Assembly: GCA_965116475.1 (NCBI GenBank)
Contig: OZ220691.1
Coordinates: 3,328,001-3,392,000, forward strand
DNA length: 64,000 nt
Source of the DNA: Gemmatimonadota bacterium
Lineage (GTDB): Bacteria > Gemmatimonadota > Gemmatimonadetes > Palauibacterales > Palauibacteraceae
Reading direction: 5' to 3'
Below, piece by piece: positions 6,377-36,519 of the stretch. The notes under the pieces are model-generated. The model saw only the letters and a list, made by a program, of their open reading frames with translations. It ran no database searches and was not told the origin of the DNA. The position numbers and the translations under genes were made by a program. Numbering within the stretch: the first letter of the stretch is position 1; each line of letters opens with the position of its first letter.

Positions 6377-9175
6377 TCAGATGGAGAGGTAGTGGCTCAC
6401 CTTGACGATGAAGACGTTCTCCGCCGGCGCCATCCACAGCCCCTCGAGATCCCGGTTGAGATCGAAGTTGCCGAGCAGCACGCTCTCCCGGCGCGCGTGC
6501 TGCCACACGAGGAAGAGTTCGGAACCCGGGCGATATTCCCAGCGGAACACCGCGTTGCCTCGCAGCGAGCGGATGTTGAAATCGCGATCCCGGGTCGAGT
6601 AGTCCAGTTCGCCGTCGCCGTTGAAGTCGAAGTAGCGTACGCCGTCGAAGGCGCACGTCGCTCCGTCCGTGCATCCGGTGACGACGCCGTCGAAGCGGTA
6701 GGCCCGCCCTTCGGCATAGTCCACGAAATCGAACGTCCCGGCGGCCGCGAGTTGCCGGTAGCCCCGGTAGTCGCCCGACGTGAGCAGCGGCTGCGCGTAG
6801 AGCTGCAGGCTGAGATCGGGCGTGAACGACACGTTGAGGCGCGTTTCCATCGAGAACCCGGTCCGCTGGAGATCGCCGAACAGGTACCGGTCGCCGTACG
6901 TCGGCGCGTACGCCAGCGCGGTCGACCGGGTCACGTACTGGGCTCCGTCCCGCCTGTCGTTGTAGTTGGGACTCAGCGACACCCGCCAGTTCGGAAGCGG
7001 ACGGTAGGAGATGTTCACGCCCGTGCTCATGTCGTGACCGCGCCCCTGCGCCGCGACCCGGTACGAGAAACGCGGCGACACGTGGAACGACCGGCTCCGG
7101 TCCGTGTTCGCGTCCACCCGGACATTGAACTCCGCGGGCTCGGTCATGAGCGGGCCGCCGCGGGTCTGCGTATCGGACTGGGATTCCGGCGAGTACGAGA
7201 AGTTGAGGTTGAAGGCCCAGTTGTTGAGGAAGGTGAACCGGCCGCTCATCCACGCGGCGCCCGTGTCGTAGGAGCGGCGCAGGTGGTCCGGCCCCCACTC
7301 CTTCTCGAGCAGCGAATGACGGAAGTTGTGGTAGGTGAAGAGGCTGATGTTGTAGTTGCGGAAAAGGCTGCCCGGTCTGATCTCCCGGTACCCAATGCGA
7401 CCTCCCACGTCGAGCCGTTCACCGGTGGTCAGGAAGCCGAAGTCGTTGACCTCGAAGCCGGGGGTCTGCTGGCCCGCCCAGGTGCCCCACGTCCAGTGTT
7501 CGCCCTCCTTCTCGAGCTGCACCCGCCAGTCGCTCCCGAACATGGAGGTGGCCGTGGAGTCGACGGCCAGGTACGTGGCGTCGGGGCGCTGGAAATAGTG
7601 GGTCGGATTGCGTTGCAGCCGCATGAGCGCATCGCTCGAACCCTGGACCAGGCTGCCCGAGTAGAACCCCCACAGGCGGTAGTCGCGGCCGCGGCGTCCG
7701 CCCCACTGGTGCTCGAAATCGAGGCCGAAACTGAACGCCTCCGAGGGGAGGAAGTCGAACGATCCGTCGCCCGGCAGTTCCCGCTTCAGCCCGGTGCCGA
7801 TGACGCCGACCTTGCTCGCGCCGCCGCGGAAGTCCTGCTGGAGCCTCACGACCGCATGCTCCGCCTGGGGCTCGGCGACGAACCGTCCGAGGGAATCCGC
7901 CTGCGAAAAATACGCCTGCCCCATCTCCTGTCCGGTGACGGCCGCCAGCGCCCCGACGGAGAGACCGCTCTGCGTCCGGCCGGTGAGCTTCGCCGCCCCC
8001 AGGATCGACGTCAGGTGGGGTTCGGCGTGAAAGTCCGCGTCGTAGGGTCCGGATCCCCGCGGTTCCCGCCCGATCCGGCGACTGAAGAAGAGCGCCTTCC
8101 CACCGCCGAAGCGGCCGCCGCGCGAGCCGGCGAAGGTGAAGATCTGCGCGTCGCGCACGAAGAAGGGGCGCTTCTCCGGGAAGAAGGTCTCGAACGCCGT
8201 CAGGTTGATGACCTCCGGGTCTACCTCGACCTGGCCGAAGTCGGGGTAGATCGTCGCATCGAGGCTGAACGCGGAGCCGATCCCCATGCTCATGTCGAGG
8301 CCGCCGCGGGGCTCCATCTCGGTGCCGTCGAACAGCGGGTTCCCCGGCGTCGCGGGCGCCGTGTGATACTGGGACACGGCGAAGGGCCGGACCTCGAACC
8401 TCCGGCTCGACCGCGGGAGCTGCAGCCCGTCGATCGTGCCGAACTGGCTGACCCGCCCCCGGGCCGTGCGCGACTGCAGCGCGAAGTAGTCCGTCTCGTT
8501 CGTCTCGAGCCGCCGGCGCTCGAAGTTGATGCCCCAGGTCTGCATGCCGGGGCGCGCTTCGTAGCGGATCTGGGAGAGCGGGATCCGCATCTCCACCGTC
8601 CACCCCCGGTCGTCGACCTGCACGGCGGAGTCCCAGATCGCGTCCCAGTTCGTGTCTTCCTGGGTATCGCCGAACAGGTACCGGTCCGTCTCCGCCCCCG
8701 CGGCGCTGACCTCGAACTCGTAGCCGGTCAGCCCGTCCCGGTTGGGATCGAGCGAGAGCTTGAAGGAATCGAAGGAACCGCGTTCATCCCGGCGGGTGAG
8801 GCGCGCCCGGATCACACCCGGGTCGCTCTCGTACATGCGGGCGGCGACATATATCGCGCCGTCGTCGAACACGACCCGCACCTCGGTCGGTTCGGAGGGC
8901 TCGGCGCCCTCCAGCGGCACGCCCTGGACGAAGTCGGTGATGATGGGGGCCGGCTGCCACGCCGGGTCGTCGAGCCGGCCGTCGATCGAGAGCGCGCCCT
9001 CTCGGCGCACCGCGTCCACGGCCGCCGGCGCCACGCCGCCCCGGAAGACGGTCGCCGCGGGTCCTTCGGGCGGCGAGAGCCCCTCCTGTTGCCCGTGAAG
9101 CCCCCACCCCGTCCCGCTTATCGCAAGAGCCGCGAGGGCGATCGCCGCGCGGCCCGCTCCATGTCTGAATCTCAT
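6377..9175 (-). CDS. CBM9-like sugar-binding domain + DUF5916 secreted/outer-membrane protein
   Basis: IDGRLDDPAW, WTVEMRIPLSQIRY, PDFGQVEVDP..INL..FE.FFPEKRPFF, FFSRRIG, AAKLTG; signal peptide. Confidence 0.85.
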   Translation of the reverse strand: MRFRHGAGRAAIALAALAISGTGWGLHGQQEGLSPPEGPAATVFRGGVAPAAVDAVRREGALSIDGRLDDPAWQPAPIITDFVQGVPLEGAEPSEPTEVRVVFDDGAIYVAARMYESDPGVIRARLTRRDERGSFDSFKLSLDPNRDGLTGYEFEVSAAGAETDRYLFGDTQEDTNWDAIWDSAVQVDDRGWTVEMRIPLSQIRYEARPGMQTWGINFERRRLETNETDYFALQSRTARGRVSQFGTIDGLQLPRSSRRFEVRPFAVSQYHTAPATPGNPLFDGTEMEPRGGLDMSMGIGSAFSLDATIYPDFGQVEVDPEVINLTAFETFFPEKRPFFVRDAQIFTFAGSRGGRFGGGKALFFSRRIGREPRGSGPYDADFHAEPHLTSILGAAKLTGRTQSGLSVGALAAVTGQEMGQAYFSQADSLGRFVAEPQAEHAVVRLQQDFRGGASKVGVIGTGLKRELPGDGSFDFLPSEAFSFGLDFEHQWGGRRGRDYRLWGFYSGSLVQGSSDALMRLQRNPTHYFQRPDATYLAVDSTATSMFGSDWRVQLEKEGEHWTWGTWAGQQTPGFEVNDFGFLTTGERLDVGGRIGYREIRPGSLFRNYNISLFTYHNFRHSLLEKEWGPDHLRRSYDTGAAWMSGRFTFLNNWAFNLNFSYSPESQSDTQTRGGPLMTEPAEFNVRVDANTDRSRSFHVSPRFSYRVAAQGRGHDMSTGVNISYRPLPNWRVSLSPNYNDRRDGAQYVTRSTALAYAPTYGDRYLFGDLQRTGFSMETRLNVSFTPDLSLQLYAQPLLTSGDYRGYRQLAAAGTFDFVDYAEGRAYRFDGVVTGCTDGATCAFDGVRYFDFNGDGELDYSTRDRDFNIRSLRGNAVFRWEYRPGSELFLVWQHARRESVLLGNFDLNRDLEGLWMAPAENVFIVKVSHYLSI

Positions 9176-9300
9176 ACCAGCCGAAACACGTCCCGCCGTC
9201 CTGTTGTTTAAGCCCGCGCGTCAGCCCGCGCGAAGCTTGCGCGCGCAAAGTTTCCCATCCGCGGCGCGCGCGCTAGTTTTGCTCCGCCGGCGTGGGCCGG

Positions 9301-9350
9301 ACGTGGTGATTTGAGGCGGATTGCAACCACGTAAAACAATCGCTAAAGAG
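9301..9350 (+). ncRNA. SAM-II (SAM_alpha-type) riboswitch aptamer
   Basis: ACGUGGU/ACCACGU P1, GUGAUUUG loop, UUGCA, 3' AAUCGCUAAAG pseudoknot partner; lies upstream of metH. Confidence 0.9.
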
Positions 9351-9354
9351 CCAC

Positions 9355-9393
9355 GCCCCGGGCGCGACTCTTTGGCGACCGGGGTCTTTTTTT
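9355..9393 (+). terminator. Intrinsic terminator (riboswitch expression platform)
   Basis: GCCCCGG(G)CGC...GCG(A)CCGGGGU stem followed by CUUUUUUU. Confidence 0.8.
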
Positions 9394-9397
9394 CGGG

Positions 9398-12300
9398 GTG
9401 AACGCCGTGTCCGAAGGCCGAAGCAAGCGCGTCGCACAGATTCGGGAGGCGCTCGAACGGCGCATCCTCCTGATGGACGGCGGCTCGGGAACGATGATCC
9501 AGCGGCTGGGCCTCGATGAGGCGGCCTATCGCGCGGGTCCGCTCGCGGATCATCCGCAGCCCCTGTCCGGGAACCACGATGTGCTGTGCCTCACCCGCCC
9601 GCGCGAGATCGCGTCCCTCTACCGCTCCTACCTGGAGGCGGGGGCCGACTTCATCACGACGAACACGTTCAACGCCCAGGCCATCTCCCAGGCGGACTAC
9701 GGCATCTCCGCCGAGGCGGGTAACGCCCACCTCATCCACGACATCAACGCCGCGGCGGCACGGCTCGCCCGGCACGAGGCCGACGAGGTGACGCGGGCGG
9801 ATCCCTCGCGGCCGCGCTTCGTGCTCGGGAGCATGGGGCCGACCAACCGGACGGCCTCTCTGTCGCCGGACGTCGAGAACCCCGCGTTTCGCGCCGTTTC
9901 CTTCGATGAACTCGCGCGCGCGTATCGGCAGCAGGCGGAGGGACTCGTCGAGGGCGGCGCCGACGTGCTGCTCATCGAGACCGTGTTCGACACGCTCAAC
10001 GCGAAGGCGGCGATCTTCGCCATCCTCGAACTCGAGGAGGATCTCGGCGAGCCGCTGCCGGTCGCGGTCTCCGGCACGATCACCGACCTCTCCGGGCGCA
10101 CGCTGTCGGGTCAGACCGTGGAGGCGTTCTGGCTCTCGGTTCAGCATGCGGACCCCCTCTTCGTCGGTCTCAACTGCGCGCTCGGCGCCGAGGAACTCGA
10201 GCCCTACGTGGCGGAACTCTCCGCCGTGGCCGATGTCCCCGTGAGCTGCCACCCCAACGCGGGCCTCCCGAACGAGTTCGGGGGTTACGACGACACGCCC
10301 GCCCACATGTCCGACCTGCTGGGGGACTTCGCGGACCGTAGGCTCCTGAATCTCGTCGGCGGCTGCTGCGGAACGGAGCCCGACCACATCCGGGCCATCG
10401 CGGAGCGCATGGAAGGCGTGCCGCCGCGACAGGTTTCCGCGATCGAGCCGCTGCCCCGGTTCGCGGGCATCGAGCCGCTCGCGATCCGGCCGGACACGCT
10501 GTTCGTGAACATCGGCGAGCGCACGAACGTCACGGGCTCGGCCCGCTTCGCGCGTCTGATCCGGGAGGATGATTTCGACACGGCGGTCGAGGTCGCGCGC
10601 GACCAGGTCGCGAACGGGGCGCAGCTTCTCGACGTGAACATGGACGAAGGCCTCCTCGACTCCGAGGCCGCCATGACCCGTTTCCTGAACCTGATCGCGG
10701 CGGAACCCGACATCGCCCGCGTCCCGACCGTCATCGACTCGTCACGCTGGGAAGTCATCGAGGCGGGGCTGAAGTGTACGCAGGGGAGGGCCGTCGTGAA
10801 CTCGATCTCCCTCAAGGAGGGGGAGGAGGCGTTTCTCGCGCAGGCGGCCCTCATCCGCCGCTACGGCGCCGGCGTCATCGTCATGGCCTTCGACGAGCGG
10901 GGGCAGGCGGACACGGTGGACCGCAAGCTCGAGATCTGCGCCCGCGCCTACCGCCTCCTGCTCGGCGCCGGCTTCCGGCCCGGAGAGATCATCTTCGATC
11001 CCAACGTCTTCGCCGTGGGGACGGGAATCGCGGAACACGACGGGTACGGGGTCGCCTTCATCGAGGCCGTGCGCCGGATCAAGCGCGAACTCCCCGGCGC
11101 GATGACGAGCGGCGGGATCAGCAACATCTCCTTCTCCTATCGGGGTAATGACGCCGTGCGGGAGGCGATGCACACGGCCTTCCTGTACCACGCGATCGCG
11201 GCCGGACTCGACATGGGGATCGTGAACGCGGGGCGGCTGCCGCTCTACGACGACATCGACCCGGAACTGCTGGAAGCGGTGGAGGATGTCCTGCTCGCCC
11301 GCCGGCCCGACGCGACGGAGCGGCTGACGGACCTGGCGGGCCGGATCCGGGACGAGGGGATCGAGACGCGGGTGGACGATGCGTGGCGCTCGGAGGGCGT
11401 CGAGGCGCGGCTCGAGCACGCGCTCGTGGAAGGGATCGTCGAGCACATCGAGGAAGACGCCGAGGAGGCCCGGCTCCTGTACGGCAGGGCGCTCGAGGTC
11501 ATCGAGGGCCCGCTCATGGCCGGCATGAACCGGGTCGGCGATCTGTTCGGGAGCGGGCGCATGTTCCTGCCGCAGGTCGTGAAGTCGGCGCGCGTGATGA
11601 AGCGGGCCGTCGCCTTCCTCGTCCCCCACCTGGAGGCCGAGAAGGCGGAGAAGGCAGAGGGAAACGCGGCGGGAAAGGCCGCGGGGAAGGGGACGATTCT
11701 CCTCGCGACCGTGAAGGGGGATGTCCACGACATCGGGAAGAACATCGTCGGCGTCGTGCTGCAGTGTAACGGCTACGACACCGTGGACCTCGGCGTCATG
11801 GTGCCCCCGGACCGCATCCTCGCGGAGGCCCGGGCCCACGGCGCCGACGCGATCGGGCTCAGCGGCCTGATCACGCCGTCGCTGGACGAGATGGTGCGCG
11901 TGGCGAGCGAGATGGAACGGCAGGCGTTCGAGGTGCCGCTGCTCATCGGGGGCGCGACGACATCGCGCAAGCACACGGCGGTCAAGATCGAGGAACGGTA
12001 CTCGGGGGCGACCGTGCACGTGCTCGATGCCTCGCGCGCGGTCGGGGTCGTGGGGAAGCTCCTCGGCGACGACGGCGGGGCGGACTTCGTGGAGCGGACG
12101 CGCGCCGAGTACCGGCGCGTGCGCGAGGAGTACCGGGGCGGGAGGCGCCCGCTCGCGACGCTGGAGAAGGCGCGGGCGAACCGGCTCGGGATCGACGCGA
12201 CCTTGCCGGTGCCGGCCCCGCGTCGACCCGGCGTGCACGTGTACGATCCGTTCCCGCTGGAAGACCTGGTCGATTACATTGACTGGACGCCCTTCTTCCG

Positions 12301-13195
12301 GACCTGGGAGATGAAGGGACGCTTCCCCCAGTTGCTCGATCATCCGGAGCGGGGGAAAGCGGCCCGGTCCCTGTACGACGATGCCCGCGGGCTGCTCGAA
12401 GAGATCATCCGCGACGGATCTCTGACGGCCCGCGCGATCGCGGGACTGTATCCGGCGAACGCGCGCGGGGACGACATCGTCCTCTTCGCGCCGGGGGCTG
12501 GGGCGCCGGAGGCTGGGGCGCCGGAGGCTGGGGCGTCGGAGGCTGAGCGTCGCGAGTTGCTGCGCGTGCCCCACCTCCGCCAGCAGATGGACCGTTCCTC
12601 GGGCGCGAACGTCAGTCTGGCCGACTTCGTCCTGCCCGAGGCGGCGGGCGCCACCGACTGGAGCGGCGCCTTCGCCGTGACGGCCGGGATCGGCCTGGAA
12701 GCGCTCTGCGCCCGCTTCGAGGCCGCCGTCGACGACTACCGGAGCCTGCTCGCGAAGTCGCTCGCCGACCGGCTGGCGGAGGCCCTGGCCGAGCGCCTGC
12801 ACGAGATCGTCCGCACCGACCTGTGGGGCTATGCGCCCGACGAGGCGCTCGACAACGACGCGCGGATCGCCGAGCGCTACGCCGGGATCCGTCCGGCGCC
12901 CGGCTATCCGGCGTGTCCCGACCACTCGCAGAAGGCGCTCCTCTTCGACCTGCTCGACGTCGAGCGTCGTCTCGGCATCCGCCTCACGGAGAACTACGCC
13001 ATGCATCCCGCCGCGTCGGTGTCCGGCTGGTACTTCGCGCGGCCGGAAGCCCGCTACTTCGGTCTGGGGCGGATCGGACTCGACCAGGTGGAGGACTACG
13101 CCGCGCGCAGCGGAATCTCCCTCGCCGCGGCGGAGCGCCGCCTCTCGCCCAACCTGGGATACGACCCGGATCCGGTGCTGGAGGCGACGGCGTGA
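9398..13195 (+). CDS. metH: Cobalamin-dependent methionine synthase
   Basis: GLNC and GGCCG Hcy domain, GERTNVTGS pterin domain, [10 protein letters not shown]12 motif, [12 protein letters not shown] reactivation domain. Confidence 0.97.
12488..12547 (+). repeat. In-frame 15-bp tandem repeat x4 within metH
   Basis: GCGCCGGAGGCTGGG units encoding [20 protein letters not shown]. Confidence 0.9.
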
Positions 13196-35875: not shown

Positions 35876-36464
35876 GAGCGACCAGGGCGCTGAGAGGCGT
35901 CGCGATCCATAGGGGCAGGATCGGGCGTGTAGCTGCGAGTTCCGCGAGATCTGCCGGGCCGAGCTTGCGCTCGATCTGCTCGATGTTCCGTTCCACTTCC
36001 GCAGGGCCCAGCCAGGCCAGGGCACGAATGGCCAGTCCGGCGGGTCGTCCCGGAGCAACGAGCTGCCAGCGTGGCGCATGACGCAGGCGGATGATCAAGG
36101 CATACAACCGCAACACTCGATTCGGGCCCGACGTGAGGTACACCAATCGGACCGGCACTTGAGTCGTCAGGCCGAGGACGTTCGCGGCCGCCCCGCCGCT
36201 CGGGACGATGGTTTCTCCCCACAAGGCCGAAAGTGCTTCAATGACGGTCGCGGCACCGGGCGCGCGAACGCCGAACCGGGTTTCTATCGGACGCACGTAG
36301 ACGCCCCGGCAGACTCGCAACAGCAGCCCTTGCCGGGCGAGGCGGGAGAGCGCCTGGTCGACGGCCGCCCGGTTTCCCAGATGGAGCAGGCCGTTGGCAC
36401 GAATTGGTGTGCCTTCCGGCAGCGTGGCTGCGTGTTCCGCGATCTGGCTTGGGAGTCCCGGCAT
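35868..36464 (-). CDS. AbiEi-type (DUF6088-like) antitoxin
   Basis: AVDQALSRL...RVCRGVY, AAN.LGLTTQVP, YLTSG; overlaps the toxin start. Confidence 0.85.
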   Translation of the reverse strand: MPGLPSQIAEHAATLPEGTPIRANGLLHLGNRAAVDQALSRLARQGLLLRVCRGVYVRPIETRFGVRAPGAATVIEALSALWGETIVPSGGAAANVLGLTTQVPVRLVYLTSGPNRVLRLYALIIRLRHAPRWQLVAPGRPAGLAIRALAWLGPAEVERNIEQIERKLGPADLAELAATRPILPLWIATPLSALVARG

Positions 36465-36493
36465 GGTTCCCTTCCGTTTTTTTCGTTTCAACA

Positions 36494-36519
36494 GTCAGAA
36501 ATATAAATTAGTTTCTGAC
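36494..36519. promoter_or_regulatory. Inverted-repeat operator of the AbiE pair
   Basis: GTCAGAAA-N10-TTTCTGAC in an AT-rich segment 30 bp upstream of the antitoxin start. Confidence 0.7.

Follow-up and report, generated by a model that had tools for sequence, protein, structure and literature searches.

The leader of metH at positions 9301 to 9393 of the window, the 64-kb stretch of Gemmatimonadota DNA analyzed here, very probably comprises a SAM-II riboswitch with a terminator/antiterminator platform that, judged from the sequence and its relatives, would act as a SAM-triggered transcriptional OFF switch. The riboswitch lies directly 5' of metH on the same strand, i.e., in the leader of a methionine metabolism gene.

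A SAM-II aptamer in the metH leader

A cmscan search returned a match to RF00521 (SAM_alpha, SAM-II) at 9293-9366 on the forward strand, which had a score of 44.3 bits (gathering threshold of 36; E value of 1e-6) and covered the entire model (positions 1-79). No second Rfam match at gathering level was present within the window, and a whole-genome search recovered the same match as the sole SAM-II of the 3.62-Mb single-contig genome. The initial annotation, which had been made from the letters alone, placed a complete SAM-II aptamer at 9301-9350 and suggested an Infernal search with this model as a check; the match lies above the cut-off, and the proposed boundaries were right to within 2 nt.

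Based on the RF00521 match and an alignment of 45 distinct Gemmatimonadota aptamers, the aptamer extends over 9301-9352 (forward strand). Reading of the sequence against the model alignment places P1 at 9301-9307/9326-9332, followed by an A-rich linker (9333-9339). The enclosed loop GAUUUGAGGCGGAUUGCA (9308-9325) is a few nucleotides shorter than that of the Rfam consensus and agrees with the conserved consensus letters GAUUUG...UUGCA. The conserved 3' tail UCGCUAAAGAGCC (9340-9352) contains the P2 3' strand, and the family tail consensus CGCUAAA(G/A)AG is found at 9341-9350. Seven Watson-Crick pairs are possible in the P2 pseudoknot, namely, 9315-9317 with 9350-9352 and 9321-9324 with 9342, 9343, 9345, and 9346. 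This placement of the pairs at 9315-9317 and 9321-9324 combines complementarity with the H-type topology that we take SAM-II to have.

Across the 45 aptamers, P1 and the proposed P2 were paired in 89.2% of cells, compared to 22 to 47% when the partners were slid. The two sets of P2 columns were paired in 92.6% and 99.4% of cells and the P1 columns in 81.9%; the unpaired P1 cells came mostly from five rows of a second family, which, in our reading of the alignment and not by a count, are merely misaligned at P1. The aptamer is near-invariant in the phylum. Exchanges occur at one P2 pair only (G-C in 32 aptamers, A-U in 2, C-G in 2, G-U in 1, and other combinations in 8), and co-variation inside the pseudoknot is thin within Gemmatimonadota.

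Promoter, 5' leader, and coding region

The gene downstream of the aptamer, at 9407-13195 on the forward strand, encodes a cobalamin-dependent methionine synthase of 1262 amino acids, as identified by tblastn and by five Pfam domains (S-methyl_trans, Pterin_bind, B12-binding_2, B12-binding, and Met_synt_B12), all of which scored far over their cut-offs. The initial assignment of this open reading frame to metH is thus borne out, and the protein is full-length. Its start is the conserved GTG at 9407, from which tblastn alignments to relatives open at residue 1. The first in-frame GTG, at 9398, was considered as a start and rejected, as the start conserved across relatives is that at 9407. A Shine-Dalgarno-like sequence, GGGGUG (9395-9400, forward strand), precedes the start codon by 6 nt, and relatives carry GGGGTG or GAGGGG at equal spacing.

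A putative promoter was located at 9251-9279 on the forward strand, with a -35-like GTTTCC (9251-9256) and a -10-like TAGTTT (9274-9279), and we infer that transcription starts near 9286. A scan with the standard sigma-70 consensus found no promoter at this leader. The block AAAGTTTCC...GCGCTAGTTT is, however, kept in the closest relatives, and a TAnnTT box begins 12 to 36 nt 5' of P1 in 49 of 59 SAM-II leaders, against a background of 1.3% of 30-nt windows. TAnnTT may be a usable promoter consensus for Gemmatimonadota. The Bacteroidetes-type box TAnnTTTG was also considered and was rejected, as it fits only 9 of the 59 leaders compared to 49 for the shorter form. TTGAC-N17-TAnnnT was seen in several leaders. 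The presumed 5' end of the leader folds, on a reading of its sequence, into a small GC hairpin of five pairs (CCGGC-GUGG-GCCGG, 9287-9300, forward strand), and the closest relatives have CCGG-N6-CCGG in the corresponding position. In free folds, part of the 3' half of this hairpin (9297-9300) can alternatively pair with 9379-9382, in the 3' arm of the terminator described below.

The upstream neighbor (6377-9175) is divergent from metH on the reverse strand and encodes a 932-amino-acid protein with a DUF5916 domain and a CBM9-like carbohydrate-binding domain. Because this gene lies on the opposite strand, the hairpin at 9355-9385 cannot be its terminator.

Mutually exclusive terminator and antiterminator

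A predicted intrinsic terminator occupies 9355-9393 on the forward strand. Its 10-bp GC-rich stem (9355-9361/9379-9385 plus 9363-9365/9375-9377) closes a loop at 9366-9374 and has a folding energy of -19.5 kcal/mol when the hairpin (9355-9385) is folded alone; directly 3' of it lies the U-tract CUUUUUUU (9386-9393), which includes a T7 run at 9387-9393. The window has a GC content of 69.7% and holds only two T7 runs, each of them 3' of a hairpin. A consensus terminator scan caught the structure partly (9370-9384 plus the T-run). In 60 kb of the window, sites combining a hairpin with a U-tract were not enriched (3, 6, and 3 sites versus approximately 6.3, 6.3, and 6.5 from shuffles, or 12 versus approximately 19). 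The other T7 run (36477) follows a hairpin at 36451-36471 and stands beside an AT-rich intergenic stretch; within that stretch, the inverted repeat GTCAGAAA (36494-36501)/TTTCTGAC (36512-36519) is operator-like in appearance.

The aptamer tail can pair with the terminator. The antiterminator hairpin (9340-9378, forward strand) joins 9340-9350, from the aptamer tail, to 9368-9378, from the terminator loop and the inner 3' strand, in a helix of 11 bp with one U-G pair (9344-9374), and it has an energy of -22.8 kcal/mol when folded alone. The tail/terminator duplex reached -16.2 kcal/mol, and none of 300 shuffles of the partner region was as strong (mean of -5.3 kcal/mol, standard deviation of 1.5). 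As positions 9375-9378 are common to both structures and the antiterminator encloses the 5' arm of the terminator, the two helices are mutually exclusive. In its unconstrained minimum-free-energy (MFE) fold, the leader adopted P1 and the antiterminator (-39.3 kcal/mol). When the aptamer loop and tail were blocked in imitation of the SAM-bound pseudoknot, the terminator folded instead, at -30.2 kcal/mol, a value that excludes the energies of the pseudoknot and the ligand. Both structures had been proposed in the initial annotation, the terminator at 9355-9393 and the antiterminator with its single G-U pair at exactly the positions that the MFE fold and the shuffle test support.

The following sequence of events would be consistent with this architecture. 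Transcription would begin near 9286, and the aptamer (P1 and its loop) would emerge first. At low SAM, the tail (9340-9350) would not be held in the pseudoknot and would pair with 9368-9378 once that strand emerges; the antiterminator would then take up 9375-9378 and enclose the terminator 5' arm, the terminator would be blocked, and RNA polymerase would read into metH. At high SAM, the tail, as the P2 3' strand (9342-9352), would be fixed against the loop in an H-type pseudoknot, which would leave 9368-9378 free, and the hairpin at 9355-9385 would fold ahead of the U-tract. Termination would presumably occur near 9388-9394, 13 nt 5' of the start codon. The outcome would be feedback repression by SAM of the last step of methionine synthesis. 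This is also the reading offered at the outset, in which SAM locks the pseudoknot and frees the terminator to give a transcriptional OFF switch, and both the sequence and its relatives speak for it.

Sequencing runs (two metatranscriptomes plus a third run of unspecified type) were examined as contigs. In X1, contigs with 90 to 99% likeness covered all 30 bins. Two of these contigs (185 and 187 nt) span 9354-9540, across the terminator and into metH, and one of 88 nt spans 9296-9383. Such contigs show neither ends, strand, nor level, and the library may include DNA; they are compatible with read-through and uninformative on regulation.

Distribution and gene context in Gemmatimonadota

The initial annotation had suspected a non-proteobacterial lineage, and the relatives place the leader in Gemmatimonadota. 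The closest matches to the MetH N terminus in named genomes were metagenome-assembled genomes of this phylum (85%, 69%, and 67% identity). A pattern combining the 3' half of the aptamer with the antiterminator strand was found at 54 places in the species collection; going by record titles, 47 of these are Gemmatimonadota (Gemmatimonadales, Gemmatimonadaceae, Longimicrobiales, and "Candidatus Palauibacter sp."). Seven of the remaining places were inspected. Five lack the aptamer 5' half and are regarded here as chance matches that most probably fall within coding sequence. One, in a record titled "uncultured bacterium" (L150), holds a complete aptamer of the Gemmatimonadota kind, and the last, in Roseiarcus, is a genuine alphaproteobacterial SAM-II located 5' of metA. 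The lineage of the window is probably the genus "Candidatus Palauibacter."

At an E value of ≤0.001, RF00521 was detected in 34 genomes of a 41-genome sample of relatives (the window's own genome being part of the sample), among them 22 of the 24 genomes of the genus. Phylum-wide, 108 of 151 genomes and 57 of 81 genera had the family at this threshold, often in 2 to 5 copies, and 102 genomes had it above the cut-off. Two of the genomes counted phylum-wide (G095 and G133) are unpublished; excluding both, the numbers are 106/149 (E value of ≤0.001) and 100/149 (above the cut-off).

Fifty-nine leaders were oriented for comparison, excluding one locus from an unpublished genome. Downstream genes were called by tblastn with the window MetH and by Pfam; this replaced the picking of the longest open reading frame, which took wrong frames in high-GC DNA. 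Forty of the leaders precede metH orthologues, 23 in the genus (the window counted) and 17 elsewhere. Another 13 precede a homocysteine methyltransferase paralogue of approximately 30% identity, which was fused to an MTHFR domain in both cases scanned with Pfam, while one precedes metF and then metH, and five precede other genes. Terminators were sought with a local hairpin-plus-U-tract finder in place of global MFE folds of the 130 nt downstream, in which, for many leaders, long-range pairing with the coding region obscured the local hairpin. The finder called a hairpin with a U-tract no more than 20 nt from the tail in 42 leaders out of 59 and in 35 of the 40 metH leaders (22/23 in the genus and 13/17 in other genera). 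The five metH leaders missed by the finder (L103, L122, L127, L134, and L135) have hairpins with poor U-tracts, which accounts for 4 of the 17 metH leaders of other genera. Two further calls were distant from the tail, at 68 and 71 nt, and the one that fell inside an open reading frame was dropped.

Of the 42 leaders with an adjacent terminator, 31 had a tail/terminator duplex that was stronger than 99% or more of 300 shuffles, comprising 30 of the 35 metH leaders and 1 of the 7 others; by this shuffle test, tail complementarity was absent from six of the seven non-metH leaders. SAM-II was also observed before unusual genes (L112, L113, L117, L119, and L137), which encode PanB (ketopantoate hydroxymethyltransferase), a PALP-family enzyme, a response regulator, a class I/II aminotransferase, and a GHMP kinase (homoserine-kinase-like). 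Four of these loci (L112, L113, L117, and L137) have an adjacent terminator without complementarity to the aptamer tail, and their wiring, if any, must differ; the sole call at L119 lies 71 nt past the tail, outside that test. In a second family of the same order (L104 to L110), SAM-II is mostly below the cut-off and the gene is a homocysteine S-methyltransferase, not metH, which in L106 is fused to an MTHFR domain (Pfam). Six of these leaders carry two extra hairpins after the aptamer and then a distal terminator.

Co-variation of the two helices

Thirty-seven distinct metH leaders, with three duplicates left out, were aligned with MAFFT. The antiterminator was paired in 83.1% of cells, compared to 33 to 59% when the partners were slid by 1 to 3 columns, and none of 500 shuffles gave a covariation score as high. 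At column pair 15-46, equivalent to 9348-9370, G-C (13 leaders), A-U (11), and G-U (7) were found, and the pair equivalent to 9340-9378 was U-A in 22 leaders, U-G in 11, and C-G in 1. The terminator was paired in 84.8% of cells, compared to 35 to 48% for slid partners, with double-sided changes at five pairs. Both helices hold their pairing through base changes across the phylum. The aligned leaders are kin, with 22 nearly identical rows from the same genus, and the exchanges represent few events; the main exchange between G-C and A-U may be a single event between clades.

The predicted energetics of the relatives are mixed. The antiterminator hairpin was more stable than the terminator in 14 of 22 leaders of the window's genus, the two energies being close, as a switch requires. 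Among the 34 leaders in which the terminator formed in the global blocked fold, the unconstrained MFE fold swapped in the antiterminator in only three (L001, L086, and L099). Antitermination would therefore often have to be kinetic, i.e., co-transcriptional.

The module in Marinimicrobia and other phyla

A regular expression found a SAM-II-like core upstream of 21 of the 80 metH loci obtained from a MetH search. Eighteen of these cores were scanned (two beta-proteobacterial records, L076 and L080, and L002 were excluded), and 11 scored over the RF00521 cut-off, six from Gemmatimonadota and five from Marinimicrobia records. The Marinimicrobia loci (L005, L007, L019, L020, and L070) carry the SAM-II/terminator/metH module. 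In their leaders, the tail GUGCU stands opposite AGCAC before the terminator 3' arm, so that the same wiring is spelled in other letters. Weaker or unscanned look-alikes were seen in a Thermoanaerobaculia record and the two beta-proteobacterial records (L022, L076, and L080).

Alternative explanations

The aptamer could be real but act chiefly at the level of translation or mRNA stability, with the hairpin and U-tract serving as a constitutive attenuator or as a source of leader RNA. A role of this kind has been proposed for the terminator that lies 3' of the metA SAM-II riboswitch in S. meliloti, where, according to the available portion of Scheuer et al. (2022), a terminator follows a translational SAM-II and no riboswitch-driven antiterminator could be predicted. 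Some Gemmatimonadota leaders (L111 and L124) lack a terminator and have a Shine-Dalgarno-like sequence straight after the aptamer, the ligand-free MFE fold retains the terminator in most relatives, and the Shine-Dalgarno sequence of the window begins merely 2 nt past the U-tract. That sequence (9395-9400) is, however, 43 nt beyond the aptamer tail, and it is complementary to none of the aptamer strands. Moreover, the strand that the ligand would control forms an 11-bp antiterminator stronger than all 300 shuffles and kept with base exchanges across genera. We therefore consider an action mainly on translation or stability unlikely.

It is also conceivable that the structures are conserved and yet the hairpin with its U-tract does not terminate transcription in this phylum, serving instead as a pause, a Rho-entry site, or an RNase target exposed by SAM. 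In line with this, the window shows no enrichment of canonical terminator-like sites, the hairpins of six leaders (L084, L085, L122, L127, L134, and L135) have poor U-tracts, and a literature search found no experimental work on termination signals in Gemmatimonadota. On the other hand, a tract of seven U residues directly after a 10-bp GC-rich stem is the classical signal, T-runs of such length are very rare in this genome, with both of those in the window 3' of hairpins, and the same layout recurs in the Marinimicrobia leaders with 6 to 8 U residues. A non-terminating hairpin thus seems quite improbable. That the whole is a chance resemblance with no functional riboswitch is scarcely credible given a score of 44.3 bits against the curated cut-off of 36, the occurrence of the motif at one and the same position ahead of metH in 22 of the genus's 24 genomes, its detection in 108 of 151 in the phylum, and the conservation of the helices. 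A SAM-responsive transcriptional switch is the reading that we prefer.

Comparison with known SAM-II systems

The crystal structure by Gilbert et al. in 2008 was reportedly determined on a translational SAM-II (metX) RNA. The aptamer class and the ligand-locked 3' strand are the same in that RNA and in the metH leader. In metX, however, the P2 3' strand contains or adjoins the ribosome-binding site, whereas here that site is 43 nt further along, with a terminator between. Compared to the SAM-I riboswitch (S-box) of Firmicutes, the ligand, the pathway, and the terminator/antiterminator principle, in which an aptamer strand is common to the antiterminator, are shared; the folds are unrelated, SAM-I being a four-way junction and SAM-II an H-type pseudoknot.

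Further counterparts are the SAM-II riboswitches of Agrobacterium metA and Sinorhizobium metZ. They belong to the same aptamer family, with P1, the conserved loop, and a GCUAAA tail, and they follow the same logic, in which a terminator between P2 and the open reading frame gives an OFF switch. They differ in host, which here is a member of the Gemmatimonadota, not of the Proteobacteria or Bacteroidetes, and in target, which here is metH. Corbino et al. (2005; PMC1273637), who defined SAM-II as the metA motif, already noted, in the portion of the paper available, terminators in many members and occurrences beyond the alpha-proteobacteria, including Bacteroides. The accessible text of the survey by Barrick and Breaker (2007) gives termination as the commonest SAM-II mode in alpha- and beta-proteobacteria, and that of Scheuer et al. 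(2022) describes termination at the S. meliloti metZ SAM-II riboswitch. The view of SAM-II as best characterized as a translational switch, from which the initial annotation set out, is therefore not mainly true of genomes, and the novelty implied there falls away, since SAM-II riboswitches with terminators have been described before.

In marine alphaproteobacteria, SAM-II likewise precedes an intrinsic terminator stem in tandems with SAM-V (Poiata et al. 2009, as cited in the available part of Sherlock et al. 2022; PMC9481103). According to the same part of the latter paper, SAM-II always stands before a terminator in SAM-II/SAM-V tandems, and tandems of SAM-II with SAM-I/IV exist as well. 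The metH leader differs from these in being a single riboswitch, with neither SAM-V nor another second aptamer before the start codon. The proteobacterial SAM_alpha regulon comprises metY, hom, metA, metX, metC, and metW, and metH is absent from it in the part of Leyn et al. (2014) that was available.

Our literature search, confined to main articles, found no paper on SAM-II in Gemmatimonadota, and the accessible part of one paper on Palauibacterales held nothing on methionine or this riboswitch. The arrangement is not new in kind, as SAM-II with a terminator is known; the family is common in Gemmatimonadota and apparently unremarked in print. As the copies score over the cut-off of the curated model, any annotation that uses Rfam would identify them.

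Co-occurrence with SAM-I and implications

Two divergent SAM-I (RF00162) aptamers, with scores of 77.8 and 73.2 bits, are present in the same genome (G000:C1:1940786-1941127, corresponding to L197 4287-4628). One faces an operon for an amino-acid kinase, aspartate-semialdehyde dehydrogenase, and a Cys-Met PLP enzyme, and the second is oriented toward a MetX-like alpha/beta hydrolase gene. Downstream of the two aptamers, no terminator-like site was found. The genome also carries two divergent cobalamin riboswitches (67.2 and 53.5 bits) at G000:C1:1629762-1631095 (L195 and L196). In the phylum, SAM-I occurs in 20 of 151 genomes, mostly in one family (12/16) in which SAM-II is rare (1/16). At least 5 of the 151 genomes were above both the SAM-I and the SAM-II cut-offs, including all four of the window's genus in that draw. 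This co-occurrence runs against the statement, in the available text of Barrick and Breaker (2007), that no species has both classes, and it amounts to a small correction of an old generalization. A search of the literature on co-occurrence of SAM-I and SAM-II found nothing relevant.

It is possible, although we hold the idea only tentatively and would sooner doubt it, that SAM-II and not SAM-I is the main, ancient SAM sensor of Gemmatimonadota and of neighboring phyla such as Marinimicrobia, with metH as its home target and a co-evolving pair of tail and antiterminator. In the window's genus, the pathway appears to be split, with SAM-I before the genes leading from aspartate to homocysteine and without a terminator and SAM-II before the methylation step and with one. 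If this is true, one metabolite would be read with two set-points or kinetics in one organism, and any functional meaning of the split is speculation.

The significance of these findings is modest, and no new mechanism is revealed. They give metH a regulatory annotation in a phylum whose members are known chiefly through metagenomes, and they show that a family named for alpha-proteobacteria is routine in Gemmatimonadota (108/151 genomes, or 106/149 without the unpublished ones). The metH leaders also form a clean natural series of co-varying tail/antiterminator pairs, which could be used to study how a pseudoknot as small as that of SAM-II governs a decision in transcription.
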